15,117 nt of DNA. Origin: a virus. The first letter of the stretch is position 1. Each line of letters begins with the position of its first letter. A program made the translations under genes and the position numbers. Positions 1-14,318 of the stretch are shown here, piece after piece. The notes under the pieces are model-generated. The model had not been told where the DNA came from. It saw only the letters and a list, made by a program, of their open reading frames with translations, and did no database searches. The stretch lies in the UHGV virus genome UHGV-1727645; one strand, 5' to 3'.

Positions 1-1260
1 CGTTCTTCCGTTCCTCAGCCTGTGCAGTATCAGCAGCAGCCAAACGTAGGTTTAATGGCGCTACAGGGGCTAAGAGGCGTTGCTGAGATTAATCAGCAGG
101 CGCAAATTTCCCAGCAGCTAAAAGAATATCAGGCACGGTTGGGTAGTGCGGTAGCTAATAATGATCGTGTTGGCGTGCAGAAGTTAATGGCCCAGTATCC
201 CCAGTTTATAGCTGATTCTCAAAAACAGATGGGATTCATTGATGCTGAGCAAAATCGACAGACCGCTGACGCTGCCATGAATCTGCGTCTTGCGTCACAA
301 ACTGGAGATCCACTGACCATGCAGAAGGCCATTCAGCAGGCAAATCCAGTATTACAGCAATTTGGTCTTCCTGCTGAAGAGGTTTATCAGTCTTGGCAGA
401 ATGACCCACAGGAATTCAACAGAATCACTGACCTCATCCATCTCCATGCTGATCCAAATAGTTACTTTAGTGTTCAAGAGAAGCAGCAAGGGCAGAGCAT
501 TGCACAGCAGAACGCAGATACATCTGCATATAATGCTCAGGTTAATGCGGAACAGGGTAATCGGCGTCTCGATATGGAGCAGTTCAAAGTCCTATCCGAT
601 AACCAACTACGCACGAGAGAAATGGTTCTGAAAGCACGACTTGGACGTGCTCAAAATGATATCGAGAGAGACAAGCTCAATGCTGAACTGAGCAAGGTAC
701 AGCAGGCGAAAGTGGAGAAGATGAACGATAAAATTAATACTGTTGCAGGTAACATCGACTCCTTGAACTCTGCGCTTGAAGTGGGTCATGAACTGGCGGG
801 AATTGTAGGGAAACATCCTTCGGCCGTTACCCGCTCGCAGAACTATAACCCCCTGACGCTGGGGTTTGGATTCCTTCCTGATGTAGCAGAAGACACACGA
901 AGCCTGCGCGCCAAAGCTGATGAATACAACCTAAAGGTTATTCTGCCTAGCCTCAAAGGGACTTTTGGCTCTAACCCAACCGAAGGGGAAAGGGCTGCCC
1001 TTATGCAATCTCAAAATGGCATTAAGTCAGCAACCAGCAATGAGGCCTTTTTGCGAGAGTTGAATAAAGCGCAGGACGTAATTATTCGAATGCAGAAACG
1101 ACAGATTGCCGGGCTCGGTATTCCTGTAACCAAATCAAAGGACGAAGAAACTGATACCAAAATGCTGTTGCAGGATCCTTCACTGGTTAAGGATTATGTG
1201 ACCGCACATGGCTATCTGCCGGAAAGTTACTATCAGGCAAAACTTAAGGGATGGCAATGA
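1..1260 (+). CDS. Gln/Ala-rich protein, 5' end outside window; probable virion/ejection-type structural protein of a phage-like element (function inferred, not recognised)
   Basis: Frame is open from base 1 to TGA at 1258-1260; the first in-window start is GTG at 22 with no Shine-Dalgarno before it, so the gene probably begins upstream. Its stop overlaps the start region of the next gene (ATG at 1251/1257/1260), implying translational coupling. No catalytic motif recognised. Confidence 0.6.
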   Translation, partial: RSSVPQPVQYQQQPNVGLMALQGLRGVAEINQQAQISQQLKEYQARLGSAVANNDRVGVQKLMAQYPQFIADSQKQMGFIDAEQNRQTADAAMNLRLASQTGDPLTMQKAIQQANPVLQQFGLPAEEVYQSWQNDPQEFNRITDLIHLHADPNSYFSVQEKQQGQSIAQQNADTSAYNAQVNAEQGNRRLDMEQFKVLSDNQLRTREMVLKARLGRAQNDIERDKLNAELSKVQQAKVEKMNDKINTVAGNIDSLNSALEVGHELAGIVGKHPSAVTRSQNYNPLTLGFGFLPDVAEDTRSLRAKADEYNLKVILPSLKGTFGSNPTEGERAALMQSQNGIKSATSNEAFLRELNKAQDVIIRMQKRQIAGLGIPVTKSKDEETDTKMLLQDPSLVKDYVTAHGYLPESYYQAKLKGWQ

Positions 1261-3977
1261 TGGCACAACTGACAGAAAAACAGAAAGCCTATTCCCGTCA
1301 TCTCGATGAAAAATATGGTTTCCCATCAGGGACGATGGAAACATTAGTTGGCAATGAATCTAGTGGTAACGGAAGTGCCGAGTCACCGAAAGGAGCTAGA
1401 GGATTTGCTCAACTGATGCCCTCAGTAATGAGTGATGCTGGTTATCGTGGAACTGATCCGCGCTCACTGCCATTTGAAAAGCAAATGGATATCGCAGCAA
1501 ACCATCTCAATAAAGGAATGAAGCGATTTGGTGATATAGGTATGGCATTGGCTGGGTATAATTCTGGCTATGCTCGTATTAATGCCGTCAGAAACGGTAA
1601 ATCTACACTGCCAGATGAAACGGCTAATTACGTAAGTAAATTTGCAGATGCCGGAATAATCCCTGATGACAGTGAAATCTTGCAGTTTGCACAAACCAGT
1701 CAACATCGCAATCTTCAGCAGCCTGACTACTCAGAGCTTGATAAAGAAATCTCTCAGGTGGGAGATATTTCTGCATGGGAAGCAAAACGTCAGCAATTTA
1801 AGAACATAGAAGCAGGACTACCAACAGCCAGTTCATGGGAGCAGAAAAGAGCTCAGTTTCTCGCCGATGAAAATGCCGGGGAACCGCAGCAGCAAGTAGC
1901 CAAGTCTAACCTTAATCCTGAGATGGAATATCTTTCGCCAGGACTGAAAGCTGCGCCAGAGCAGATGGCCAGAGGGATTGCTAATATACCGTTTGATGTA
2001 ATGGACGCAGGCGTGGGGGTAGTCAATGCGGCGCAATCAGCCGGAGCATGGGCAGCTCAGAAGCTTGGTGTGGGTGATGGCACATACACGCCCATATCAC
2101 CTGTCTTTCGCCCAGTAGACCAACCTACAGATCCATACGCGCAGGCTGGTGAGCAGCTAGCACCTTACCTTATTACAGGATTAGGTGCAGGAAAGGCAGC
2201 TACCGCAGCTTCTTCAGTTGCCAACGCTCCACGTGCTGAACGTGCGGCCACAAAGGTGGCTAGTATGTTGGCAGAAAACCTGCCAGGTACATTGGTGAAC
2301 GCCCAAAAGAACGGGCAGATCAGCCCAGAAGACCTAGCAAAAGAGACAGGTATTGGCCTAGCAGGATCGCTAGGAGCACGCGCTTTAATAAAGAGCGGAC
2401 AGACAGCCAGTGACGTAATGCGAGATGTATTGCGGAGTAATACAAATCAATCAGGCCATGTGTTAGGGGCAGCAAATACTCTGGAAACCGCCAATGATGT
2501 ATCGAAAGCAGCGCGTTCTGCCGTAGGCCGAGAGCATATCGCATCGCAGGCATCAAACGTCAGAGATGATGTCGCTAAGGCGGCGAAAATCACTGGTATT
2601 AATATCAACACCCTGACGCCTGGAATGCGCTCAGGTAGTCGTGGAATTGCCCAAGCAGAAGGTGTTCTGGCATCAACTCCTGGGAATGTTCAGGATGCTC
2701 ACCTTACGGCCTTCAATGAAATATCCTCAAAGTTGAATAAGCAGTTGTCTGATTTCGGTGCTGAGTCTGGAAGCGCATCAGAAAAAAGCGCAGCAATTAA
2801 AGAGCGCATCATCGCGAGCCTCAGTGATATGAAAACAGCAGAGAATATGGCATGGGCAGAACTGCGAAGCACGATGCCACGCGAAAGGATGAAAATGAGT
2901 AATGGGATGGCTGTCGTCCAAGCAGAAAAAGCAGCCAATGTTCCACTCAGCCCGGAGATGAAACAGTTTCAGGCTGCCAACAACCAAGGTGGCGGCATAA
3001 CCTTCGACGGGATGAAGGCATGGCGTGCTAAGTTTGCTGATGCTGAACAAGCAAACACCCGGGCAGGTAAGGCCAATGCTGCCCGGATTGCCGGAGAAAT
3101 GCGCAGAGCTATCACTGATGACATGCGCATCATGGCTGAAAAAGGAAACTTCCTCACAGAATGGCAGAAAGCTAACGATCTCTCTAAAAGTTACATTATC
3201 GCCAAACAAAATGCCGAATCTGTTTTTGGTCGAGAACTCGCATCAGACGCTATGGTAAGAAAAGGTGCCGATACGCTTAAGGCATCCGCAAACACTGGAA
3301 CGGGAGCTTTTCACCGCCTTATCTCCGCGCTGCCGGAAGCAGAACGCCAACCAGCAATAGCATCTATTCTTCAGCATGTTGTGGCGCAGGGAGAGAAGGG
3401 AGGAATCGGTGAAGAGTCTGGTATCCAGTATTTTGCCAAGCTCATGACCCAGCAGAATGTAAACGCCATCAGTCGTCATGCGCCAGATCTCGGTAGAATG
3501 ATGAAAGAGTTCGGTGTACTCGCTAAAGCCAGCACCAGACCGCAGCGATACGTAGAGCGCACGGGAAGAACAACTGAGGCTCTCAAAACGCTCGATTCAG
3601 GCCTTCCAAAGATCGTCGGTGTGATTATGAACGGAGTTCAACAGTCAGGTGCGATCGCTGGAGGCTTTGGCGGTGGTGTAATTGGTTCGATTAGTGGTTT
3701 GGTTGCTGGTGGCGCACTGAGAAATACTGTGGCTAAGATTGGGGCGACAAGAAGTGGTCGATATGCGATAGAGAAAGCCGTTCAGGAAGCTACAAAAGCA
3801 GTGCGCGCAGGGGCATCACCAGCAGCGATCGCCGCAGCAGAGAAACGATTTTCGGCCAATAAAATTGCCATGAAAGCAATTCGTGATGCCGTTGGGGCTG
3901 AAGAATTCGTGAAACTGACAAGGGCCGGGATTGTAGCTACCCTCAGTGGCATGAAAGATGTTAGCGAATGGGAATAG
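1251..3977 (+). CDS. Large (908 aa) protein with N-terminal family-1 lytic transglycosylase (SLT) domain and C-terminal Gly-rich hydrophobic segment; phage internal-virion/ejection-like or tape-measure-like
   Basis: Translated N-terminus carries the three SLT signature motifs: E-S (E36-S37), G-A-x-G-F-A-Q-L-M (res 48-56) and A-G-Y-N-S-G (res 101-106), about nt 1356-1570. C-terminal segment GAIAGGFGGGVIGSISGLVAGGAL (about nt 3650-3720) looks like a glycine-zipper membrane helix. True start may be ATG 1257 or 1260 (better spacing from AAGGGA at 1246-1251). Confidence 0.8.
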   Translation: MAMMAQLTEKQKAYSRHLDEKYGFPSGTMETLVGNESSGNGSAESPKGARGFAQLMPSVMSDAGYRGTDPRSLPFEKQMDIAANHLNKGMKRFGDIGMALAGYNSGYARINAVRNGKSTLPDETANYVSKFADAGIIPDDSEILQFAQTSQHRNLQQPDYSELDKEISQVGDISAWEAKRQQFKNIEAGLPTASSWEQKRAQFLADENAGEPQQQVAKSNLNPEMEYLSPGLKAAPEQMARGIANIPFDVMDAGVGVVNAAQSAGAWAAQKLGVGDGTYTPISPVFRPVDQPTDPYAQAGEQLAPYLITGLGAGKAATAASSVANAPRAERAATKVASMLAENLPGTLVNAQKNGQISPEDLAKETGIGLAGSLGARALIKSGQTASDVMRDVLRSNTNQSGHVLGAANTLETANDVSKAARSAVGREHIASQASNVRDDVAKAAKITGININTLTPGMRSGSRGIAQAEGVLASTPGNVQDAHLTAFNEISSKLNKQLSDFGAESGSASEKSAAIKERIIASLSDMKTAENMAWAELRSTMPRERMKMSNGMAVVQAEKAANVPLSPEMKQFQAANNQGGGITFDGMKAWRAKFADAEQANTRAGKANAARIAGEMRRAITDDMRIMAEKGNFLTEWQKANDLSKSYIIAKQNAESVFGRELASDAMVRKGADTLKASANTGTGAFHRLISALPEAERQPAIASILQHVVAQGEKGGIGEESGIQYFAKLMTQQNVNAISRHAPDLGRMMKEFGVLAKASTRPQRYVERTGRTTEALKTLDSGLPKIVGVIMNGVQQSGAIAGGFGGGVIGSISGLVAGGALRNTVAKIGATRSGRYAIEKAVQEATKAVRAGASPAAIAAAEKRFSANKIAMKAIRDAVGAEEFVKLTRAGIVATLSGMKDVSEWE

Positions 3978-4127
3978 ACGCTCTAACTAACAAAACCATA
4001 ATAGCCAAGGACGGCATACTGATATTGAGCCAACTATAAAAATTCCATATCACATTACGAGCCTGTGGCTTACATTCGCTTACAGTGATGATAATTTATA
4101 ACCACGCAATTCTTAGGTGAGATTATC

Positions 4128-4826
4128 ATGATTAAAAATCTTCTTTTAATATTATCCCTGTCATTATTGGCTGGATGCGTACAAAAACCGTTAGTAACGG
4201 TCAATGCTTTATCCTCCGGGCAATCTGTCGGCAAGAAGTTCTTGATCATCCCCGCAAGCCAAGAACTTTGGAACACCAAACAGATTGAATACACTCAAAT
4301 AGCTACGGTAGTAGCCGCCAGTTTATCAAGCCAAGGATATACACAAGTTAAAGATGAAAAATTGGCTGACCAGGTAATTCTCTTGAACTTTTTGAGAAGC
4401 GGGGCCATTTCAAATACTCGTAATGTAACCATCCCAATATACGGGCAAACTGGTGTGAGCTCAGCAACAACGTACGGAAACTCGAACACCACGTTCAATA
4501 GTTATGGTGGTGGCTACGGTACAGCTAATACCACTGGAACGGCAACAACAGTTTATACGCCTACTTATGGAATTACTGGCGCGTATAACACAACTGTGAC
4601 GGACACGTTCTACGGCGCAGGGGTGATACTCCAGTCGTTTGATGCCAAGGCTTATCTCAATAATAGGCAGATTAATATGTTATGGAAAGTTGGTAGCTCA
4701 GTCGTCTCGCAACAGTCTGATGGAATTGCTGATTACAAAGGTTTGGCGAGAATAGCCGCTAGCTATGCCGGGAAAAATACAGAAGGTGATATAACTTTTA
4801 ATGTTGACCCTAAAGCACCAAATTAA
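4128..4826 (+). CDS. Lipoprotein (lipobox L-A-G-C, Cys17) with Thr/Gly/Tyr/Asn-rich low-complexity region
   Basis: SD GGTGAG 7 nt upstream of ATG 4128; N-terminus MIKNLLLILSLSLLAGC is a classical signal peptidase II signal with lipobox; residue after Cys is Val (not Asp), suggesting outer-membrane sorting. Residues ~110-165 are low complexity (TTYGNSNTTFNSYGGGYGTANTTGTATT...). Confidence 0.7.
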   Translation: MIKNLLLILSLSLLAGCVQKPLVTVNALSSGQSVGKKFLIIPASQELWNTKQIEYTQIATVVAASLSSQGYTQVKDEKLADQVILLNFLRSGAISNTRNVTIPIYGQTGVSSATTYGNSNTTFNSYGGGYGTANTTGTATTVYTPTYGITGAYNTTVTDTFYGAGVILQSFDAKAYLNNRQINMLWKVGSSVVSQQSDGIADYKGLARIAASYAGKNTEGDITFNVDPKAPN

Positions 4827-4833
4827 CTAATAA

Positions 4834-4849
4834 GCCCGGTACGCCGGGC
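4834..4849 (+). terminator. GC-rich hairpin (GCCCGG-TACG-CCGGGC) 8 nt after lipoprotein stop; putative terminator
   Basis: 6-bp perfect GC stem with 4-nt loop directly downstream of TAA 4824-4826; no strong U-tract follows, so confidence is limited. Confidence 0.4.
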
Positions 4850-5046
4850 ATTCATGCCCCTATTATTCATGAATCGCTTTTTCTGGAAGGTATGCGACAA
4901 ACGTTAAGTGACATTGCCTACACATTCGGGGCGGGATTTCAAATCCGCTCCCAGTTGATGGGGCCGTTACAGTACGCGCATATCCGCTTTATGTGAAACA
5001 GGAAGATTTTTCTGATATCACTGCCACAGCAAAACACCAATTTTGA

Positions 5047-5062
5047 GACAAGTACGCGCGCG
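5047..5062 (+). repeat. Copy A of 3-copy repeat, core GACAAGTACGCGCGCG
   Basis: Exact 16-nt core shared with 5335-5350 and 7089-7104; this copy has an imperfect palindrome (TACGCGCGCGAG). Confidence 0.7.
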
Positions 5063-5072
5063 AGGGGTATCA

Positions 5073-5092
5073 GTTGCAAAAAATTTTGCAAC
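5073..5092. repeat. Near-perfect palindrome GTTGCAAAAAATTTTGCAAC
   Basis: Inverted repeat GTTGCAAAA / TTTTGCAAC read directly; 10 nt downstream of repeat copy A. Confidence 0.5.
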
Positions 5093-5311
5093 TACGTCCG
5101 ACCAGTATGCACACGATGGCGGGGGGGATACCATAAAACTGTTCTCTACATGAGACAGAGTGGTGGTGATGTGTTGATTATCGGCGTATATGCGCACAGG
5201 ACGCGCTATGACGATGTTTTATGCGGGTACACCAATCACATGTATCTGGTGTGATAAATCGCGTTACATGACCTCTCATGTTGTGCTGGTGGTTATCACG
5301 ACGTTCTGAAT

Positions 5312-5370
5312 CTGGCCTTTGCCTGGTATTTTGCGACAAGTACGCGCGCGTAGCATCGAAATAATCGGAT
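5312..5370 (+). repeat. Copy B of 3-copy repeat (about 55 bp, CTGGC..TGGTATTT.G.GACAAGTACGCGCGCG-TAGCA), palindromic core TACGCGCGCGTA at 5341-5352
   Basis: Aligns over about 55 bp with copy C (7063-7120) at roughly 80 percent identity by eye; core is a perfect 12-bp alternating-CG palindrome. Confidence 0.7.
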
Positions 5371-5611
5371 GGCGTATGCTGCTGGTAATATGAAGACCGA
5401 TAGCATTAACCGTAAGGAGAAAGACTTCTCGATAACGGCAAGGGGGCTGAATTGCGAGGCGAGATTAAGCAACTGTCTTGAACGTAAAAATCATGGAGCA
5501 ACATGATGGTACGATTCATTCCATTCTTCGTTCTTTCTGAGCATTGCGTTCAGGCTTAGTCAAAATTAGTGTTGCGAGCGGACCTATTAGTAATTGTTAG
5601 TGCGATGCGCC

Positions 5612-5641
5612 TGTTATGGATTGTTATGGATTGTTATGGTT
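5612..5641 (+). repeat. Tandem decamer array: TGTTATGGAT x2 + TGTTATGGTT
   Basis: Three head-to-tail 10-bp units read directly from sequence; about 260 bp beyond the AlpA-like gene 3' end. Confidence 0.7.
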
Positions 5642-5897
5642 GTGGCAGGCCTGATTAATATCCAGTATGACCACCAGCTATGAGAGGCCACCTCAGTGGT
5701 TCGCAGTTGCAGGTTTGCACTCAGGTTCGCAGGGTTTTGGCTACTTTCACGTGCGAACCTGCAGAATTGCAAAGGACAACTAAGTCTTCTGGCCAACTCC
5801 CGGTTTATGAGCGACACAGTCCGCCTGGCGCATCGTTTTCGTCGAGTGCGCCCATCAGCTTGTCCATGGACTATCCACCACTCGATATTAAAGCTAA

Positions 5898-6083
5898 TCA
5901 TTGGTTGCCAGCCCGCGAATCAAGTTTGTTCTGGATCCAAGCTTCAACCTCCTCAAGCGACCATCTAGCTGATCTACCAATTTTAACTGGCTGTGGAAAC
6001 GTGCCCGTCTTAACCCATGAGTAGATTGCCGTTTTCTTGAAGCCCGTTCTGAGCATGACTTCGCTTAATTTGATAAGGCGCAT
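5898..6083 (-). CDS. alpA: AlpA-family phage/integrative-element transcriptional regulator (excisionase-like HTH), 61 aa
   Basis: Translated product MRLIKLSEVMLRTGFKKTAIYSWVKTGTFPQPVKIGRSARWSLEEVEAWI matches the AlpA (Phage_AlpA) pattern: HTH, G-x-FP-x-P-x-K-I-G, R-W-x-x-x-E-V-x-x-W. Strong SD AGGAG 5 nt upstream of ATG on the minus strand. Confidence 0.85.
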   Translation of the reverse strand: MRLIKLSEVMLRTGFKKTAIYSWVKTGTFPQPVKIGRSARWSLEEVEAWIQNKLDSRAGNQ

Positions 6084-6132
6084 AGAGGCTCCTCTGCTTT
6101 AGATTAAGCATAGTGACAATCTGGCTTTGGGT

Positions 6133-6167
6133 GGTATCCAAAAGCGAGGTATCCATGTTGGTATCCA
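6133..6167. promoter_or_regulatory. Three direct repeats of GGTATCCA (6133, 6148, 6160) in the alpA / small-protein divergent intergenic region; candidate operator
   Basis: Exact 8-mers at 15- and 12-bp spacing, 50-85 bp upstream of the alpA start codon. Confidence 0.45.
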
Positions 6168-6304
6168 CCAAAACGCTGTTTACCAAAAAAGTTACCACCG
6201 GAACAGGACATTTTGAGCTGTAACTTAACACATAGCATATGGAGTTCACGCATAGACTTCACGCACAACGGCTCTGGCCAGTGAAGAATCACCCTGGCTA
6301 GCAA

Positions 6305-6310
6305 TATAAT
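6305..6310 (+). promoter_or_regulatory. Consensus -10 hexamer TATAAT upstream of small-protein gene 6336..6527
   Basis: Perfect TATAAT 26 bp upstream of ATG 6336, leaving a leader that contains the SD AGAGGGG; -35 region is weak (TGAAGA). Confidence 0.3.
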
Positions 6311-6335
6311 GCCGATCACCATCAGAGGGGAATCC

Positions 6336-6527
6336 ATGACACCACGAGAAATCGAGCTGCTGACCATTGCCAAGCTGGAGCATGGCGGCCACCAGCTCAG
6401 CCCGGCAGAACTGCGGGAATTAAGGCGCCAGCTGGCAGAGGGCCCTGTAATAGCCAGGCGGTACCGCGAAATGATGACCAGCCCCGCATATCGCTGGAGC
6501 AAACCAGCGCCGCTCCGTGCGCGGTGA
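6336..6527 (+). CDS. Small conserved protein (63 aa), paralog of 7338..7523; possibly Icd-like (tentative)
   Basis: Start chosen at ATG 6336 (SD AGAGGGG 5 nt upstream) rather than ORF-track ATG 6309 because the paralog starts with the same MTPREI..LLTIAKLEHGGHQL sequence. The Icd-like label is from memory of annotations of similar small genes next to alpA/perC, not verified. Confidence 0.65.
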   Translation: MTPREIELLTIAKLEHGGHQLSPAELRELRRQLAEGPVIARRYREMMTSPAYRWSKPAPLRAR

Positions 6528-6600
6528 GCAGCACCTAACCAGCACTAGACAAGCCCTGTGCTGGTGGATGTCCCTCATAATTAGCGGTTTTTAAACGGCG

Positions 6601-6723
6601 TGTTGGTTCACGGCCTCTTTTTGTTGGTTCAAAAATGGGGTGTGTTGGTTCACTTTTTGCGAATAATTCTTTTAAAAACAATACTCTTTACAAATTGAAC
6701 CAACTGAACCAACTGAACCAACA
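6601..6723. repeat. Iteron-like array: TGTTGGTTCA x3 direct at 21-bp phasing (6601, 6622, 6643) plus three tandem inverted copies TGAACCAAC (6696-6723)
   Basis: Read directly; the inverted units are the exact reverse complement of the direct units; array sits immediately upstream of the PerC-like gene. Confidence 0.75.
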
Positions 6724-6758
6724 CCTTTTTGCTTATCTATATAATCTGAGAGGCAGAA

Positions 6759-7040
6759 ATGATAAGGGACAGGAAAGCTGAAGAGCTGGAGTCAAAAGGG
6801 CTATACCGGAGAGCTGCCGCACGATGGATGGAAGTCATGCTGTTATGCACCGAGGACGATGATCGGGAATGGATAAAGCGCCGCCGTGAAACGTGTCTGG
6901 AGAACGTGAAGCGCCCGCCCGTGAAGGTTGAGGAATTTGGCGACCTGCATAAAGCTGTTACCGAAACGCAACACCGCATGGGGATAGCGCAACCGAACGG
7001 TAACGCCTTCCGGTTAAATGGCGGCAAGAGGCAAAGGTAG
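6759..7040 (+). CDS. PerC-family transcriptional regulator (93 aa)
   Basis: N-terminus MIRDRKAEELESKGLYRRAAARWMEVM resembles the PerC/Pch family as I remember it; SD GAGAGG 5 nt upstream of ATG 6759. Family call from memory. Confidence 0.6.
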   Translation: MIRDRKAEELESKGLYRRAAARWMEVMLLCTEDDDREWIKRRRETCLENVKRPPVKVEEFGDLHKAVTETQHRMGIAQPNGNAFRLNGGKRQR

Positions 7041-7044
7041 ACCA

Positions 7045-7066
7045 CCAGAGGGAAATCATCCTCTGG
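7045..7066 (+). terminator. Hairpin CCAGAGG-(8 nt)-CCTCTGG 4 nt after PerC-like stop
   Basis: 7-bp perfect stem, followed by a moderately T-containing stretch that merges into repeat copy C. Confidence 0.4.
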
Positions 7067-7120
7067 CTGGCGGTTTCTGGTATTTCGGGACAAGTACGCG
7101 CGCGCGTAGCACCCAATCGG
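7063..7120 (+). repeat. Copy C of 3-copy repeat, palindromic core TACGCGCGCGCGTA at 7095-7108
   Basis: Same orientation as copies A and B; lies immediately after the hairpin that follows the PerC-like gene; 14-bp perfect palindrome. Confidence 0.7.
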
Positions 7121-7337
7121 TGAGGAAATAGCGGCGACCTGAATGGTCAAAATCACAACGCAGCTATCCCCGTAAGCAGCGCTTAACGGAATAGCAGTAA
7201 CCTGAATCCAGTGGGGAGGGGGTAGTCAAATCTCTACAGCCCTGACTATCCGGGACTGCCCGCCCCATCGTTTTTTTATACCCGCGAAAAATGAAATTTA
7301 ATCCGGGCGTGTTTCATCCTTCCAGAGGGTATGACGT

Positions 7338-7523
7338 ATGACACCACGCGAAATAGCCTTATTGACCATCGCCAAACTTGAGCACGGAGGCCACCAGCTT
7401 ACACAGGCAGATCAACGGGAGATAGAACGATCAGTTAATGCCGATATAGCCCGGCGCGACAGGTTCCGCGAAATGATGCGAGCACCTGCCTACCAGTGGA
7501 AGAAGCCAGCGCCGCGCAGGTAG
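7338..7523 (+). CDS. Small conserved protein (61 aa), paralog of 6336..6527; possibly Icd-like (tentative)
   Basis: About 65 percent identical by eye to the 6336 product; SD GAGGG upstream of the ATG. Confidence 0.65.
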   Translation: MTPREIALLTIAKLEHGGHQLTQADQREIERSVNADIARRDRFREMMRAPAYQWKKPAPRR

Positions 7524-7643
7524 ATATGGGATTATTCCACATGTAACTTATGCGTATTAAGCAAATTTCCTTTATTCACCTTTACAGAATTGTGAGTACG
7601 TCAGTATCGTTATCCTTCCGATTCGCATTTATTCAGGATTTGC

Positions 7644-8186
7644 ATGTACCAGCTAAAGATAACCATCCGAGACAGCAAACCACCTATATGGCGGCGTGTG
7701 CTGGTTCCAGAGCAAATCCCCTTTAGTAAACTTCATGCCGTGATCCAGTTAGCTTTTGGCTGGAATGACGAACACCTGTATATGTTCGAGAAAGGGCGTA
7801 AAGGTGATCCAGGTAGCGAGTATCGCGTATGGGGTGAGGATGAAAGCATGGGTAACGCGGCAATCACGCCACTATGGGCGGCGCTCCAGAATGAGGGTGA
7901 CAAGCTGGTTTACACGTATGACTTTGGCGACTGGTGGGATTGCGTCATTGTGCTGGAGAAGCAAACACACGATACGAGTAATCAGCCCATTAGCTGCCTG
8001 CGTGGGAAAGGCACCACCCCGGCGGAAAACTCAGGCGGCTTGCATGGTTACAATGAATTGCTATTACAGGCCAGAGAGTCTGATAATCCTGAGCAGGCCG
8101 AGATCCACAATTTCCTGATGCTGGATATTGAACGCCGGGTTTACGACCTGAGCCGCATCAACGACAGATTGCAGGCTATTAACTGA
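7644..8186 (+). CDS. pRiA4b ORF3-family protein (PF07929-like), 180 aa
   Basis: N-terminus YQLKITIRDSKPPIWRRVLVPEQIPFSKLHAVIQLAFGWNDEHLYMF and later YDFGDWWD match the characteristic pRiA4b ORF-3 motifs (Y-x-L-K, P-P-I-W-R-R, L-H-x-x-I-Q-x-A-x-G-W, H-L-x-x-F, YDFGD-W). SD CAGGA 5 nt upstream. Confidence 0.8.
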   Translation: MYQLKITIRDSKPPIWRRVLVPEQIPFSKLHAVIQLAFGWNDEHLYMFEKGRKGDPGSEYRVWGEDESMGNAAITPLWAALQNEGDKLVYTYDFGDWWDCVIVLEKQTHDTSNQPISCLRGKGTTPAENSGGLHGYNELLLQARESDNPEQAEIHNFLMLDIERRVYDLSRINDRLQAIN

Positions 8187-8538
8187 CCCGCATGTATTCA
8201 CCTGATATTGCGTTGTCAGCGCCGCCAGTATCGCGCATAACAGCGCACTGACCGGGTAAACCGTAGCGCACGACCGTTGCGTTAGTATCACCGCCACGCT
8301 TTACCTGCCGCGATTCATACACTGTCACCCGCTCAAGCAGTCCACCAGCAACCATGCTTTCCAGTGTGCGCCGGGTTGATTCGAGCTGGTGACGCTTATC
8401 GAACGACACCATGCCATGAAGCAGGTAGGCCACACCCGACACATCGAACGGCGGCGCACCAATCTCACCAGTCACCCATTCGAGGTTATCCGGTTCAAAG
8501 TAGCTAAGTATCTCTTTTTTGCGACTGGTCATTCTCAT
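8179..8538 (-). CDS. Hypothetical protein (119 aa), convergent with and overlapping the pRiA4b ORF3 gene by 8 bp
   Basis: Uninterrupted ORF with plausible composition and SD-like AAGGAA upstream; no motif recognised. Confidence 0.55.
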   Translation of the reverse strand: MRMTSRKKEILSYFEPDNLEWVTGEIGAPPFDVSGVAYLLHGMVSFDKRHQLESTRRTLESMVAGGLLERVTVYESRQVKRGGDTNATVVRYGLPGQCAVMRDTGGADNAISGEYMRVS

Positions 8539-9065
8539 GGCTGGCTGATTCCTTATTGTGGGATAGCACTATCATACAATAAGTGGGTTAAAGGGAGAGC
8601 GTTACCGCCTGATATGCTGTATGAATAACAACCAAATTTCAGGTGCGGAAAAAGATATGGGGGTACTTTTGGGGGTATCTATAAAAAATGAACAATAAAA
8701 AAGGCAACAAAAACAAAGCTTATCGCCTATGTGTATTGTTCCTATTATCGCACCATTTAAATCAATAAGTTAGATAAGTGTGTGCCTAGATTTTCTTGCA
8801 GTTTGTCATTTGGGTACACACAGGGGACACAAAGCACAAAAGTGTGTACATTTGGTTTTGGTGTCCTCGTGTTTACTTCTTACCGTTGATATAAATTCAC
8901 TTTCTTGTTGACAAAAATTGTAAGCATGTCGAATGGCAATGTAGACATCGCTATTAGTTGTTTGGTAAGGTATTTATTGAGTGTAAACATAAAAACTTTA
9001 TCAATATATGCTCAGACTGATGAGGTCAGTATTGATACTGATGTTTTCAAATTTTAGGCCATAAA

Positions 9066-9662
9066 ATGGCTGTCATTCCAATGTCTTACTCCCCTGCTAC
9101 TGTAGCTCGTCGTTTTTCGATACTGGATGGAGTAACTATTCAGGGTGTACTTTACCAGATCATCTGGGATCCAAAGACTCCGTTCGCTGCGGTAATCGAA
9201 GCTGCACCTTCTGTTATTGATGGTGATATTCGCCATAAGGTTGTTGCCACTCTGGAGCTTCAGCGTCGTTCACAGCTTGAAGGGGTGTTTGTCCGGAAAT
9301 TCTGGGAAGAACAGGACGTTGCTCAGATTGAAGGGATTGTTGTCGATGGTGCTGTACGTGATGTTAGCCTTGCTACGTTTGTTTATGAAACAATAGCCAC
9401 AAAAGCAGGCGTTATACTATTAAGTGATAACGAGCAATATGAAGGAGGTAAAGCCCTCTGGCAGCATATAGCGCGTCGTTCAACGAATCTTAAGGTGTTT
9501 ATCTTAGATACAGATTCCGCACGGTATTATCCGTTTGATGGTGATCGGATCTGCTATGATGGGGAAAGTATTCCTGAATCAGAAATCTGGAGTGAACATC
9601 CTGATCGAAACAAACACGGTGTTGTTCTTGTGGCCGAATCTGTTAATGGAAAAGCCGCATAA
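9066..9662 (+). CDS. Hypothetical protein (198 aa), function unknown
   Basis: Longest ORF in this interval, preceded by a 527-bp AT-rich intergenic region; weak SD; no motif recognised. Confidence 0.55.
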   Translation: MAVIPMSYSPATVARRFSILDGVTIQGVLYQIIWDPKTPFAAVIEAAPSVIDGDIRHKVVATLELQRRSQLEGVFVRKFWEEQDVAQIEGIVVDGAVRDVSLATFVYETIATKAGVILLSDNEQYEGGKALWQHIARRSTNLKVFILDTDSARYYPFDGDRICYDGESIPESEIWSEHPDRNKHGVVLVAESVNGKAA

Positions 9663-9721
9663 TTTGCCAGCCGCATCGTGTTCTTGGAACTCTGACAGAC
9701 CTGAGAGTTGGCAGAATAAAC

Positions 9722-9747
9722 AGGGGATAACAGAACGGTTATCCCCT
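9722..9747. terminator. Perfect 10-bp stem hairpin (AGGGGATAAC-agaacg-GTTATCCCCT) between convergent genes; likely bidirectional terminator
   Basis: Lies between the stop of the 198-aa gene (9662) and the stop of the minus-strand gene (9755); on the minus strand it is followed by GTTTATTCTG. Confidence 0.55.
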
Positions 9748-9754
9748 CAGTACT

Positions 9755-10807
9755 CTACTGCTCGATCAAACATTTGCTCCATAAAGGTTGGATCGCATGT
9801 CGATCTTTGCTGTAGGGGAATCTTTTATTTTTTTTCTTCTGTTCCATCAGTAATGTGTCGATTTCGTTGTTGACAATGCGCGTCACAGCGTGACGATAAC
9901 GGTTTAGCGATGTATCACTGATATCCTGAGGCAGGCATAAACTGGTATCGGTTTTGATGCGTTCATTTATGCCATCTTTAACTTTCCATTTCAGACCATC
10001 CGGAACCCCTTCCTGCAAATCATAGGCTTTCAGTCCCGCAAGTCGTACAACAACGTCAATCTTCTCTGTTCGTATTTTTTTATTACTTACCAACAAAACT
10101 TTATTAGTTTCATACCATTTTTCAAATGATTCCAGCCGTTTTACTGCATTTATGATGTTATTCCGAATTCCAGAAAATTCAATAGAATCTGTGTGTTTCA
10201 TTTTCTTTTCTTCAGCATTAGGGGCTATTCCTGGATAGTCAATATCATGCTTTACTGACTCCAGATATGCATATTGCAGGCAGCCTGAAAGATGAATTGC
10301 GGCATCCTGCAGAGTATTAGTGCGAATCAATCTAAGGAGTTCATCTCGTTGTATGGTTATCTGACAATAATCCCTTTCCCATGCGGTCGTATTCTCGGTT
10401 TTTTCATCTTTATCCGGAGTAACTGTTGCGAATTTCCATGTGTACTGGATGAAATCTGTTGGTTTAAAATACGCCATGCTTGTTTTTACCCAACCACAGA
10501 TTTCAGCTGCATAAATATGGACATAAATATTGTACATTGTCTGTATTTCACGCTGACTGGCGACTGAAAACATATTTTTTACGAATTCTGTACATCCGAT
10601 TATCGATAGTCGTTCTCTCAGTCTGTGCACATCTTCAGTATCTGACTTCCTGCAGTCCCAGGGCCATTTGTTCTTATTCTCAAAACAGGAAAGCCATTCT
10701 GGAATATTTTGCTTATTCTGGTAGAATTCGTTAACCGCCAGACCAATGGTTATGGCAAGTATTGTTGATTCATCTATTTCATGATACTGCTTCAGGTGTG
10801 CCAGCAA
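9755..10807 (-). CDS. Hypothetical Lys/Asn/Ile-rich protein; C-terminal 350 codons of a ~543-codon reading frame interrupted by one in-frame TAA (probable pseudogene or base-call error)
   Basis: ORF-track start is TTG 10807 with no SD; the frame is open upstream through 10808-11002 (65 codons, no stop, no start codon) to the TAA at 11003-11005 that ends the 127-aa ORF, which is in the same frame. Confidence 0.6.
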   Translation of the reverse strand: MLAHLKQYHEIDESTILAITIGLAVNEFYQNKQNIPEWLSCFENKNKWPWDCRKSDTEDVHRLRERLSIIGCTEFVKNMFSVASQREIQTMYNIYVHIYAAEICGWVKTSMAYFKPTDFIQYTWKFATVTPDKDEKTENTTAWERDYCQITIQRDELLRLIRTNTLQDAAIHLSGCLQYAYLESVKHDIDYPGIAPNAEEKKMKHTDSIEFSGIRNNIINAVKRLESFEKWYETNKVLLVSNKKIRTEKIDVVVRLAGLKAYDLQEGVPDGLKWKVKDGINERIKTDTSLCLPQDISDTSLNRYRHAVTRIVNNEIDTLLMEQKKKNKRFPYSKDRHAIQPLWSKCLIEQ

Positions 10808-11002
10808 CTCTGAGGTGCAGGAGTGCGCAACAGACAGATCCTGATGGCAATACCCCTGCCGGGCTTCTGCTGGAATTGGTGAACTCCAAGCTTTACATTC
10901 AGTCAGAATATTAAATAAATCATCTCCTACAAACTTTGCCAGTTCAGGTGTTTTCCAGGTTCTCGGTCCTGGGCTGATAAAGGTTGATGTTGTCTGTACC
11001 TC

Positions 11003-11386
11003 TTACATCGCCCCCCAGGTTTTCAGACTGATATTTCCTTCATCAAAACCATTGTATAAATGGCACATCACATTAAGCGCATCTGTAAGAGCAGAAGGAG
11101 TGGGTTGGGGGGAGGTAGACTCTTCAATAGTAAGCTTTGGTTCTTCAGCGCTTCTTTGTTCTCTAAAGATTCTCAGGAGCTCTGTATTGGCACGTAATGC
11201 AGAGAGTACTCTGTGCTGTTCTTCAAACCAGGGGCGATATTCTGGATCCTGATATAGTTGACGTGCTTTAAAAATGAGCAAAAGGATTTGTTCGGAAACC
11301 GCCTCGTATATGCCAGGGAAAGGGTGGAGTTCGCCGGATAAAACACGATCATACTGATACTTTTGTTGCATTGTCCGAGTTACCAT
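11003..11386 (-). CDS. N-terminal 127 codons of the same interrupted ~543-codon reading frame; function unknown
   Basis: Ends at TAA (plus 11003-11005), in frame with the downstream 350-codon ORF; upstream is a 690-bp AT-rich divergent intergenic region. Confidence 0.55.
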   Translation of the reverse strand: MVTRTMQQKYQYDRVLSGELHPFPGIYEAVSEQILLLIFKARQLYQDPEYRPWFEEQHRVLSALRANTELLRIFREQRSAEEPKLTIEESTSPQPTPSALTDALNVMCHLYNGFDEGNISLKTWGAM

Positions 11387-11689
11387 GATGTCAGAAGTTT
11401 CTGCTTGCTACATATTGGTCCGCTGTCAGACAGAATCGATGTTGTCCACTGAAATGAAACGTTAATCCTGAGCCAGCCGCTGATTACGTGGATAGCTTGT
11501 GTACATTTGTTTATATCCTGAGATTTTATACATTATTTACGATAATTTTCTCCTGATTGTGATTGTCTCCGTCAGTTACCTCTGCGTCTTCTGTATAAGC
11601 GTATTTGCTTCATTTTCCGATCATTCGTAGCCTGCTTCTGTCTGTTCAGCAACAGATTGTCTTTTCCTCCGCTTGTTGTAGCTTATTTT

Positions 11690-11705
11690 TGTGATGATTA
11701 TCACA
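11690..11705. promoter_or_regulatory. Perfect CRP-type consensus TGTGA-N6-TCACA (TGTGATGATTATCACA)
   Basis: Both half-sites match the cAMP receptor protein consensus exactly, with the canonical 6-bp spacer, flanked by AT-rich DNA, in the divergent intergenic region between the interrupted gene and the second alpA-like gene. Confidence 0.45.
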
Positions 11706-12076
11706 AATTAGATGGAAATATTTCACCTTCCTGCGACTCCTCCATGCTTTGTTTGAATTTTACATGGATTTATTTATATATCCCAACCTAATTTTAGTCA
11801 ACAAAAATCGTCATAATGGATTTTTAATATTAATTTTTGTTTTTATTGGTCGCGGCTTGTTTTTATTTGGTTCTATATGTCTTTATTTTTTCTATTAAAA
11901 GCCATTTTAACATTGCAATTCAGTATTTTGACCTATAAAAATCATAGTATTACATTTTATTTGTAAGGTGTTGACTGGATGAATGATAGTGACTTTCACT
12001 CATTGTTTATCCGGGAAACTTAGTCATTTCATGCTCATGCCGGAAATAAAAAGTATTGATATATCAGGAGGGTAGT

Positions 12077-12304
12077 ATGTGGCTTCCATTAACAGATGAA
12101 CAGCGTCTGGTCATTTTGAAAGCTTATGGGATTGAATGCGACAGACTGGTACGTGAAAAGGAACGATATGAGATCACGTCAATTTCTCGTACACAAGCGT
12201 GGAAACTTGAACGGGAGGGAACATTTCCACCACGTAAGTCTATCGGAAAGAAATCTTGCGGATGGTTGTTAAGTGACCTTCTCTGCTGGATACAGACCAG
12301 ATGA
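12077..12304 (+). CDS. AlpA-family regulator with about 30-aa N-terminal extension (75 aa from ATG 12077)
   Basis: C-terminal half ITSISRTQAWKLEREGTFPPRKSIGKKSCGWLLSDLLCWI fits the AlpA HTH pattern; SD AGGAGG 5 nt before ATG 12077 (ORF-track start TTG 12056 lies upstream of the SD). Confidence 0.7.
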   Translation: MWLPLTDEQRLVILKAYGIECDRLVREKERYEITSISRTQAWKLEREGTFPPRKSIGKKSCGWLLSDLLCWIQTR

Positions 12305-12377: not shown

Positions 12378-12409
12378 ACCGAAAGTTATTACGAAAAAAG
12401 GAAATATTT

Positions 12410-12637
12410 ATGTCTTACATCAAACCGGATACTCCGCATCCAGTATATGCGCAACCATCAATGACTGGAAATGCAATAATTGAAACTCAACACAATGAAA
12501 AAGCATCTCTGGCTATGACTACAACATCATTATTAACAGCGATGTCAATTGCCTGTCAGAATCAGATTGAGGTGTGCAACCCCGGAAATTTACGTGGGCC
12601 CGTTAATATTTACACTATGGTTCTGGCTGATTCCTGA
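12410..12637 (+). pseudogene. Truncated duplicate of the 5' end of the YfjI/DUF3987-like gene (75 codons)
   Basis: Product aligns by eye with the N-terminus of the 12886 gene (NAIIETQ..LAM..TS.LTA.SIACQNQI.VC.PGNLRGPVN.Y...LADS), then hits a stop where the full copy continues (GATTCCTGAGAAAGG versus GATTCTGGTGAAAGG). Confidence 0.6.
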
Positions 12638-12885
12638 GAAAGGTAAAAGACCGGGGGGAAGGTGTTAGTGAAATAATTTTAGGAGGTGTTAAGAATGAGA
12701 AACATGAATGATATTTCGTGGTAAATAACACAGTATGAACTGAATTAACCTTATCGGTTTATTAAACATCAGATCTACAGATATTCTGTATTTCTCAGAA
12801 CATTAGGTCTGAACAGCAGCTATTTCGCTATTATAGCGGGAGTTGCTGCTACTTTACTAACCCATTAATGAAAAGAGAGGCTTTT

Positions 12886-13890
12886 ATGTGCTTACTTGCA
12901 CCAGAAAATCCTTATCCGATATATGCACTACCACCGCTGGTGAGAAATGCAATAATTGAAACTCAAAAAAATACACAGGCACCTTTGGCTATGGTGGCGA
13001 CATCCGCATTAACAGCGATCTCAATTGCCTGTCAGAATCAGATTGACGTGTGCAGACCTGGAAATTTACGTGGGCCTGTTAATCTTTACTCTCTGATTCT
13101 GGCTGATTCTGGTGAAAGGAAAACGACCGTGGATAAAGTGTTTATGAAAGCATTTTATCTCAGCGATGAAGCCCTCGCGGAAGAATACGCGAAACTGGTT
13201 GAGAATTACAGCACAGAAAAGGCAATATGGGAGCAAAAACAAAAAGCGCTGGAATCAAAATTTCATAAAGAGATTCGTGCCGGTAAAGATTACAAGGCAA
13301 CAGAATCAGAGCTTGAAACGCATCTGAATAAGTCTCCTGTTCCGCCGCAGATACGTCGAACAATTTTTAATGAGACAACTATAGAGGGAATGTTAAAATA
13401 TTACTCCGATAGCAATCGTTCTTTTGCTCTTGTATCCAGTGAAGGGGGGGTAATTTTTGACAGCCGGGCCATGAGTAAACTGGGAATTATTAACACTTTG
13501 TGGGATGGAGGTTCTCTTTTCATCGACAGGAAATCATCTCCCGGAATTAATTTGAAGGAGCCAAGACTGACGATGTCGGCGATGATTCAGCCTGATGTTT
13601 ACCACAAAGGTTTTTGTACGCGAAAAAAAGAACTTGTGAAAACGTCAGGACATCATGCAAGGTTTTTGATGTGTCAACCAACATCAACGCAGGGGACAAG
13701 GATAATAACCGGAGATAATTATTCATCACAGTATCAGGATTTGTTTGAACAGAGGATCAATGAGCTTATTGATGAAAGTCTGGCGATGAGTGGTGAACGA
13801 CGTTGCCTTCACTTTTCTCCTCAGGCTGCCAGAATCTGGACGGATTATTACAATGATGTGGAATCGAGCTGGGGGGATTGGGGCCTTTAA
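12886..13890 (+). CDS. YfjI/DUF3987-like protein, N-terminal part (frameshifted gene); family name tentative
   Basis: Start set at ATG 12886 (SD AGAGAGG 5 nt upstream; matches the start of the duplicated fragment) rather than ORF-track ATG 12868. The gene follows an AlpA gene, as in CP4-57-type elements. Frame ends at TAA 13888-13890, just after a G6 run. Confidence 0.65.
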   Translation: MCLLAPENPYPIYALPPLVRNAIIETQKNTQAPLAMVATSALTAISIACQNQIDVCRPGNLRGPVNLYSLILADSGERKTTVDKVFMKAFYLSDEALAEEYAKLVENYSTEKAIWEQKQKALESKFHKEIRAGKDYKATESELETHLNKSPVPPQIRRTIFNETTIEGMLKYYSDSNRSFALVSSEGGVIFDSRAMSKLGIINTLWDGGSLFIDRKSSPGINLKEPRLTMSAMIQPDVYHKGFCTRKKELVKTSGHHARFLMCQPTSTQGTRIITGDNYSSQYQDLFEQRINELIDESLAMSGERRCLHFSPQAARIWTDYYNDVESSWGDWGL

Positions 13891-14318
13891 GACATTGCCG
13901 GGAATATGCTGCTAAAAATGCAGAGTATATGGCAAGACTGGCAGGACTTATTTACCATTCGAGCGGTGAGGAGGGGGAGATTTCCCCTTACATTGCAGAA
14001 ATGGCGAGAGAATTAGCAATATGGTACGGTAATGAGTATGTGCGGTTGTCTAATCCGTTAACTTTTGACAACCCTGCCCTGACCGTACCTGTGCGACTCA
14101 TTCCAGAGGAGCTTGAACTTTTCAACTGGATAAAAAGCTATTGCATTGAGAAGGGGATCCTCTGTATGAAAAAAAATGACATTTTACAGCGTGGTCCGAA
14201 CCGTTTCCGGAAAAAGGATAAAATCAACTGGTTACTGGATTTACTGTATGAACAAAACAGAGTTGTACCGGTTATTGAGGGAAAAACGTTGTGTGTCGCA
14301 CCTAACTTTGACCTCTGA
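13878..14318 (+). CDS. C-terminal part of the same YfjI/DUF3987-like gene in the +1 frame (146 codons)
   Basis: Overlaps the upstream ORF by 13 nt; one extra G in the G6 run at 13871-13876 would fuse both ORFs into one frame of about 486 codons. Confidence 0.6.
   Translation: MGPLRHCREYAAKNAEYMARLAGLIYHSSGEEGEISPYIAEMARELAIWYGNEYVRLSNPLTFDNPALTVPVRLIPEELELFNWIKSYCIEKGILCMKKNDILQRGPNRFRKKDKINWLLDLLYEQNRVVPVIEGKTLCVAPNFDL

Follow-up and report, generated by a model that had tools for sequence, protein, structure and literature searches.

The cryptic prophage CP4-57 of Escherichia coli K-12 (intA, yfjH, alpA, yfjI, yfjJ, abpBA, rnlAB) carries the abpAB genes, annotated as anti-bacteriophage, together with the rnlAB toxin-antitoxin pair, and satellites in general are known to carry defense hotspots (PMC10803314). 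We analyzed a 15,117-nucleotide (nt) stretch of DNA, the UHGV virus genome UHGV-1727645 (hereafter the window, at its full length), which is E. coli DNA and which holds an island with the same backbone and gene order as CP4-57, in whose accessory slot lie two genes encoding a 198-amino acid (aa) protein and an orphan 543-aa protein. The original prediction had grouped these two with a third gene, of 119 aa, as one block of unassignable cargo between two AlpA modules of a P4/CP4-57-like mosaic.

With CP4-57 the island shares an integrase at a tRNA-type site, a slot gene on the opposite strand, alpA, a yfjI of the DUF3987 family and a Gp2-like yfjJ; unlike CP4-57, it has the 198/543 pair rather than yfjH (318 aa) in the slot, belongs to the site thrW instead of ssrA and, in the window, is missing its integrase. 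The resemblance extends to the P4 int-psu, PICI and PICMI prim-fis hotspots, where likewise a variable slot lies beside core genes and related elements have unrelated fillers (PMC10803314). In contrast to those three families, however, the relatives of the island show no psu, delta, sid, capsid-redirection or fis genes, which places it outside P4, PICI and PICMI as these are defined. Taken together, the seam between two islands described below, the island architecture, the pairing of the 198-aa and 543-codon genes, the relationship of the former to P1 PmgF, the orphan status of the latter and its inactivation in the window can be stated with high confidence.

Two Genomic Islands Lie in Tandem at thrW

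The interval holding the three genes is the seam where two genomic islands, inserted one behind the other at the tRNA-Thr gene thrW, meet. Positions 8740-8755 (plus strand) are an attachment site (att) relic, identified by alignment to the intact thrW of strain 205 as the last 16 nt of that gene with a 1-nt deletion (TCCTATTATC-GCACCA), and alignable identity to the thrW locus of strain 205 starts precisely at 8740. The 16-nt tRNA end has a single exact match in the window against 0.01 expected by chance, and a search of the window for tRNA genes found none apart from this relic. The left block (1-8772) is present at 99.9% identity in one set of E. coli genomes; the DNA from ~8740 on belongs to another set, where it begins directly at thrW, downstream of proBA. 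No complete E. coli genome spanning the whole window was found, and in EH09-18-41 the left block stops at the seam and is followed by the yagP'/paoD backbone. The tandem arrangement itself recurs in at least four complete genomes (hits H1-H4), and the left and right sides are found independently of each other in hundreds of genomes. The position of the relic and the separate occurrence of the two sides indicate that the left island entered thrW upstream of an older island remnant. The three genes are thus parted by the tRNA-Thr 3'-end relic into two independent islands, and the single block that had been proposed does not stand.

The genes themselves are real and not chance open reading frames (ORFs), as indicated by more than 540 homologous clusters for the 119-aa gene, by ratios of nonsynonymous to synonymous substitution rates (dN/dS) of 0.04-0.31 for the strongly constrained 198-aa gene, and by purifying selection on the 543-codon gene (dN/dS 0.22-0.55). 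The positions first given for them, 8179-8538 (minus strand) for the 119-aa gene and 9066-9662 (plus strand) for the 198-aa gene, match the ORF list, and the large gene at 9755-11386 (minus strand) reads as 543 codons in one frame with a sole in-frame TAA at 11003-11005 (codon 128); the ORF list splits it into two collinear minus-strand ORFs (11003-11386 and 9755-10807). AlpA genes do flank the interval, at 5898-6083 (minus strand) and 12056-12304 (plus strand), and the spacers described as AT-rich have GC contents of 0.359 (8539-9065) and 0.341 (11387-12055), against 0.449 for the whole window. Neither credible ORFs nor an Rfam family were found in these spacers. As anticipated, a Walker A motif is absent from the 119-aa, 198-aa and 543-aa proteins, and searches of the three with Pfam, NCBIfam and PADLOC profiles gave no match.

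The 198-aa and 543-Codon Genes Fill a Variable Slot of a CP4-57-Like Island

Copies of the right island that retain their integrase (E. albertii L006, Salmonella L017, E. coli 2013C-3277 L022 and IMG/VR L039-L043) share the order int, 198-aa gene, 543-codon gene (opposite strand), an AT-rich stretch of ~700 bp, alpA, yfjI and yfjJ. In the window, the slot is followed by the right-hand alpA (PF05930, E 2e-13) and by yfjI (DUF3987 by Pfam; 12868-14318, plus strand), and the relatives L001, L002 and L022 have an annotated yfjJ/Gp2, such that the alpA-DUF3987 yfjI-yfjJ module characteristic of CP4-57-like islands lies downstream of the slot and this half of the proposed "P4/CP4-57-like" label is borne out. 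Its other half is not: psu, delta, sid and alpha primase genes are not annotated within 28 kb around the locus in L001, L002 and L022, P4 core-type Pfam matches were not found among the window ORFs tested, and membership of the P4-like satellites is ruled out by the lack of annotated psu, sid and delta in the relatives. Downstream of yfjJ, some related islands have a TOTE primase gene.

The slot of O157:H7 (L020 3669-5486) and ABU83972 (L021 3671-5488) is held by an unrelated 605-aa orphan without Pfam match, itself a candidate cargo gene. Since yfjH, this 605-aa orphan or the 198/543 pair may occupy it, the slot is variable among related islands, and the proposal of accessory cargo holds for the 198-aa and 543-codon genes, which fill this integrase-proximal position. 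The two adjoin each other in convergent orientation in 14 of 14 Escherichia/Salmonella loci examined, and on E. coli chromosomes they are nearly equal in number, the 543-codon gene being found at 718 places and the 198-aa gene at 732; on P1-like phage-plasmids the 198-aa gene occurs without the 543-codon gene (129 plasmid places). Between the two genes lies a GC-rich, terminator-like hairpin with a 10-bp stem (9722-9747, minus strand), which from its sequence is likely to be a terminator shared by both. On its other side, the 543-codon gene is separated from alpA by the AT-rich spacer at 11387-12055, a divergent control region with ORFs of at most 49 aa, in which minus-strand promoter-like sites are found at 11786-11757 and 11726-11697, the total of such sites being not above chance.

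The copy of the right island in the window is a decaying remnant, with its integrase lost, yfjI split by a 1-nt deletion near 13866 (by alignment to the intact gene of strain 205) and a nonsense codon in the 543-codon gene. No integrase lies beside the att site in the window, where there is just the tRNA-Thr relic; as relatives keep theirs, what the window holds is the remnant of an island. An extra N-terminal DUF3987 fragment (61% identical) is located at 12395-12679, upstream of yfjI, and is annotated as a pseudogene in relatives too.

An Orphan, All-Helical Protein Family, Inactivated in the Window

The 543-codon gene is a pseudogene in the window. Its premature TAA stands in place of CAA (Gln128) in intact relatives, at the end of the N-terminal helical domain; residues 129-141 form a low-confidence linker in the AlphaFold2 (AF2) model. 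Across the gene, the window and strain 205 (NZ_CM132944, 3758051-3759682) differ at 3 of 1632 nt. Exact copies of the 127-aa truncated product are recorded from 6 contigs and those of the intact protein from 529, indicating that the stop is a rare allele seen repeatedly. The next in-frame start after the stop is a TTG at 10807 (codon 194), and a restart product would therefore be without the R176-H181 motif described below; the function of the gene is lost in the window.

Clustering at 90% identity divides the family to which the intact protein belongs into 41 clusters, drawn from 5.8 billion proteins, each of them named "hypothetical" and devoid of a Pfam domain. Of 185,579 species-representative genomes, 7 contain a member, as do ~13% of complete E. 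coli genomes; 18 plasmid records carry it too, though some of these look like chromosomal segments assigned to plasmids in error, and no member occurs in 50,697 phage records. When 1.84 billion representative proteins were searched with the family profile, 42 matches were returned, all but one of them members or fragments of the family; the outside match, P0318, is a pentatricopeptide repeat (PPR) protein and was rejected as spurious. Besides Pfam, NCBIfam and PADLOC, the 543-aa protein has no match among PHROGs, PDB sequence profiles and viral folds, and none of the comparisons with YfjH, AbpA (YfjL, 538 aa), RnlA and the 605-aa orphan of the O157 slot was positive, hhalign probabilities being below 1% for the first three. 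Despite this orphan status the AF2 model is confident and all-helical, and on that model the protein is an all-helical orphan without a known fold match. The description of the gene as unassignable has thus withstood both profile and fold searches; that of the gene as Lys/Asn/Ile-rich is overstated and no more than mildly true (Lys 7.2%, Ile 7.4%, Asn just 4.6%).

The most conserved motif of the family, R176-x-G-Y-C-H181-Q-D-L-S-x-A-H-S-C (10817-10861, minus strand), contains an R-x4-H element, and 40 sequences, with identities as low as 32%, show no variation at R176, G178, Y179, H181, S185, A187 or S189, which makes R176-x4-H181 a candidate active site as judged from conservation. In being all-helical and mobile-element-borne, with an invariant R-x4-H at a helix start, the protein is like the HEPN abortive-infection RNases (RnlA, Abi); unlike them, it shows neither a four-helix fold nor profile similarity, and the comparison with RnlA was negative. 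We consider the HEPN link a motif-level lead. The earlier view that the block contains no recognizable motif accordingly needs partial revision for the 543-aa protein and does not hold for the 198-aa one, with its PmgF-like N terminus and GNAT-like fold.

The 543-codon gene varies far more than the genes beside it. Its E. coli alleles cluster at ≥99%, 94%, 84%, 82% and 70% nucleotide identity, and the chromosomal 198-aa gene stays at 93-100%; synonymous divergence (dS) is 0.30 for the former against 0.007 for the latter, which adjoins it. Comparison with the allele of locus L018 places this variation in the C-terminal ~340 codons (9755-10766, minus strand), where L018 and the window are 59-88% identical, against 93-100% on both flanks, and E. 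albertii shows the reverse of this pattern relative to the window. Judged from these alignments, the 543-codon gene is a recombination mosaic, with a breakpoint between about codons 140 and 206. A polymorphic toxin system was considered and rejected: the C-terminal mosaic is present but there is no travelling immunity ORF and no secretion-related domain, and in L018 the additional 1.2 kb encodes an IS256-family transposase, not an immunity protein.

The 198-aa Protein Is a Long Form of the P1 PmgF Family

The 198-aa gene, the first after the lost integrase of the right island, is assignable, contrary to what had been proposed. Its product matches phrog_7522 (E 1e-126) and phrog_7349 (E 1e-11), two families that carry no functional annotation. 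Residues 4-66 are 45% identical to PmgF of phage P1 (E 2e-7), and over its full length the protein shares 88% identity with gp016 of the P1-like phage-plasmids SJ46 and RCS47, which occupies the position of pmgF in P1, after genes 22, 21, pmgG and bplB. By sequence, then, the 198-aa protein is assigned as a long form of the P1 PmgF family. It differs from P1 PmgF itself, which is 98 aa long and without the GNAT-like part, and from pmgF in location, the 198-aa gene lying here in a chromosomal island by the integrase slot and pmgF in a phage tail operon. We know of no demonstrated function for P1 PmgF.

Beyond the PmgF-like N terminus, a structure model of moderate confidence provides fold-level support for a GNAT-like protein, with the AtaT toxin among the fold matches; we accordingly term it GNAT-like rather than an acetyltransferase. 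The family keeps a loop R98-D-V-G101-L-A103, which fits the motif R/Q-x-x-G-x-G/A of the loop that binds the acetyl-CoA pyrophosphate, and one NCBI record labels a member of the cluster "N-acetyltransferase". Unlike members of the GNAT superfamily (AtaT/TacT, Mu Mom), the protein has no sequence-profile match (none to GNAT models of Pfam or NCBIfam, nor to PDB sequences) and no antitoxin partner, and in the window and the E. coli thrW clade S101 replaces the loop G101. The L018 allele of the 198-aa gene has the IS256-family transposase (7902-9026) inserted in its 3' end; the L018 record is labeled "plasmid B" yet holds proBA and phoE, and probably represents chromosomal DNA assigned to a plasmid in error.

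Relatives of the 543-aa Protein Lie on Mobile DNA Beside Clade-Specific Small Genes

Homologs of the 543-aa protein at ~40% identity lie on mobile or variable DNA. The Vibrio homolog is in an integrase-proximal island, and that of Providencia in an ssrA island with an adjoining integrase, a PvuRts1I-like enzyme and contact-dependent inhibition (CDI) genes. The Aeromonas homolog is located beside pyocin S/CdiI genes and an integrase, and the Klebsiella one adjoins a type III cyclic-oligonucleotide-based antiphage signaling system (CBASS), DUF4145 and Fic. On an IncFII plasmid the gene occurs with Dcm and DUF4145, and segments flanked by insertion sequences (IS) were seen on plasmids as well; further homologs reside inside a Proteus integrative and conjugative element (ICE) and a Pectobacterium element with a type IV secretion system (T4SS). 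The expectation that relatives would be found on mobile elements is therefore supported for the 543-aa gene, on islands, ICEs and plasmids, some of them near CBASS, PvuRts1I-like, DUF4145 or Dcm genes.

The type of small gene next to the large one follows the phylogeny of the large protein, clade by clade. In Vibrio, Aeromonas, Klebsiella, Siccibacter, Pectobacterium and Providencia, the neighbor is an acidic protein of 136-149 aa with a poly-D/E tail, encoded divergently ~340 bp upstream of the 540-aa homolog (L003 7246-7656; L013 7203-7652; L014 7215-7664; L032 7208-7657). All 10 of the 10 plasmids with the acidic gene also carry the 540-aa gene, and a tblastn search found no such partner in Escherichia. 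The acidic protein could be a DNA mimic or a regulator. The divergent neighbor in Serratia, Citrobacter and Atlantibacter is a Gly/Ala-rich, hydrophobic, glycine-zipper-like protein of ~110 aa (L004 7330-7653; L008 9314-9685; L010 and L012 ~9311-9651), and in Proteus a 118-aa protein takes this place. In Citrobacter and Atlantibacter an ORF of 88-93 aa follows the Gly/Ala-rich gene.

The 119-aa Gene Is the End Gene of a Left Island with Ejection Proteins

The left island (1-8755) is capsid-less and encodes P22-type DNA-ejection proteins (22-1260 and 1251-3977, the latter with a lytic transglycosylase), a lipoprotein (4128-4826), the AlpA at 5898-6083, PerC and PRiA4_ORF3. In its relatives, a TOPRIM-DUF927 primase, ash and antA/B genes precede the ejection-AlpA-PerC set, and the island looks like a satellite bringing its own ejection proteins. 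The 119-aa gene, which overlaps the PRiA4_ORF3 gene tail-to-tail, is its conserved terminal gene. The homologous clusters of the 119-aa family span the Enterobacterales, are all "hypothetical" and are highly conserved; in Klebsiella, Pantoea and Pectobacterium the gene is the first inside elements with P22 gp16/gp20-like genes, and in E. coli it travels with the left block, which stands alone in other strains. PHROG and PDB sequence profiles, like those of Pfam, NCBIfam and PADLOC, gave no match to the 119-aa protein. Comparison of homolog neighborhoods, by which the original prediction was to be judged, showed co-occurrence of the 198-aa and 543-aa genes; the 119-aa gene is absent beside them at the other loci examined and was never found with the 543-aa family elsewhere. 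The 119-aa gene is therefore not cargo but the core end gene of its island type, unrelated to the 198/543 pair.

Two further features of the left island are recorded here. Positions 4827-5897, ~1.07 kb downstream of the left alpA, contain no convincing ORF and no Rfam match, and the matching RefSeq genome is likewise without annotation across them. Two paralogous small ORFs, 6309-6527 (72 aa) and 7338-7523 (61 aa), flank the PerC gene and share MTPREIxLLTIAKLEHGGHQL...; neither has a family match.

Discussion

What the 543-aa protein does can be approached from where its gene is found. From genomic context, we tentatively propose, at rather less than even chances, that the family is a mobile-element-borne conflict factor acting against phages or other mobile elements. 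In such a factor, activity would reside in the conserved N-terminal half, where the invariant R-x4-H/QDLS motif lies, specificity for the target would be determined by the C-terminal ~340 residues that recombine, and the clade-specific small neighbor would serve as regulator or effector. As a whole, the combination of a seam, an island slot pair and a 543-aa conflict factor is the best explanation we can offer, and falls just short of being evenly balanced between right and wrong. It is a possible but somewhat unlikely extension that the family forms the core of an undescribed modular conflict system with a new fold and interchangeable small partners, these being the GNAT/PmgF-like protein in Escherichia and Salmonella, the acidic 136-149-aa protein, the ~110-aa Gly-zipper membrane protein and the 118-aa protein of Proteus.

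Several observations weigh against a conflict role. The link to defense is drawn from genomic context, and in Serratia, Citrobacter and Atlantibacter the copies are surrounded by housekeeping genes, without evident island genes close by. PADLOC-DB v2 yields 0 families for the 119-aa, 198-aa and 543-aa proteins at E up to 0.1, and neither WP accessions in the literature nor accessions and peptides in the DefensePredictor supplements gave a match. The partners are convergent or divergent and form no operon, which is atypical of sensor-effector pairs; moreover, as the 198-aa gene occurs alone on P1-like phage-plasmids, the Escherichia pairing could be mere linkage in one island lineage. Profile or fold support for a HEPN reading of the R-x4-H motif was not obtained, and overall dN/dS is below 1, with no positive selection seen.

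Two alternatives place the pair in the service of the element itself. In the first, which by analogy we regard as quite unlikely, the 543-aa protein would be an island regulator or helper-phage sensor, encoded divergently from the alpA-yfjI-yfjJ replication module and comparable to Stl of Staphylococcus aureus pathogenicity islands (SaPI), and the PmgF-like 198-aa protein would hinder or exploit the morphogenesis of P1-like helpers. The divergence from alpA across the 670-bp AT-rich region, the all-helical protein with variable regions, the homology of the 198-aa protein to a gene product from the end of the P1 tail operon and the helper-type (P22) ejection genes of the left island all fit such a role. 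However, homologs occur in ICE conjugation modules, plasmid segments and housekeeping surroundings devoid of alpA or yfjI, related islands work with unrelated slot occupants, and no helix-turn-helix (HTH) or other DNA-binding domain was detected in the 543-aa protein; an Stl-like master repressor in the strict sense was rejected, there being no HTH and no obligatory linkage to the replication module. The second, to which we give a similarly small probability, is counter-defense or inter-element competition, where the unit would help a mobile element to establish, for example with the acidic neighbor as a DNA mimic against restriction, or with the large protein inhibiting host immunity or rival elements. 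The high acidity and poly-D/E tail of that 136-149-aa neighbor, the presence of the unit on conjugative plasmids and ICEs, and the phage-borne state of the 198-aa gene are in its favor, but the acidic protein has no Pfam match and is missing entirely from the Escherichia copies, and chromosomal copies in decayed, non-mobile remnants stay intact in hundreds of genomes.

An addiction or toxin-antitoxin-like module, with the GNAT-like protein (like AtaT/TacT) or the Gly-zipper protein as toxin and the 543-aa protein as regulator or antidote stabilizing the island, appears very unlikely. AtaT among the fold matches, the Gly/Ala-rich hydrophobic neighbor in some clades and the stable inheritance of small partners per clade would accord with it, yet the genes are not co-operonic, no ribbon-helix-helix (RHH)/DUF1778-type antitoxin gene lies beside the GNAT-like gene, and the 198-aa gene is maintained where no intact 543-codon gene accompanies it, both in the window and on P1-like plasmids, which argues that its product is no lethal toxin in need of a 543-aa antidote. 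Finally, a three-gene cassette between two AlpA modules of a single P4/CP4-57-like mosaic is exceedingly improbable, since its adjacency in the window and in at least four complete genomes (H1-H4) is offset by the att relic between the 119-aa gene and the other two, the independence of the two sides in hundreds of genomes and the failure of the 119-aa gene to appear with the 543-aa family elsewhere.

The window itself is of limited value for pursuing a conflict factor, its key gene being a pseudogene in a decaying island remnant. It does illustrate that, where regulatory modules are duplicated, what looks like a cargo block between them can be a seam of tandem islands, and att relics should be checked before genes are grouped. 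Overall, the locus represents an orphan protein family that is widespread and lies in an island slot of variable content, and uncharacterized integrase-proximal cargo is already familiar as a type. If the intact 198/543 pair, or the 543-aa protein by itself, is indeed a defense or conflict factor, it would constitute a system without recognizable domain or fold that roughly one in eight complete E. coli genomes possess and that plasmids and ICEs carry in Klebsiella, Citrobacter, Proteus, Vibrio and Aeromonas, and the int-to-alpA slot of CP4-57-like islands would be a hotspot, in which yfjH and the 605-aa orphan are equally uncharacterized occupants.

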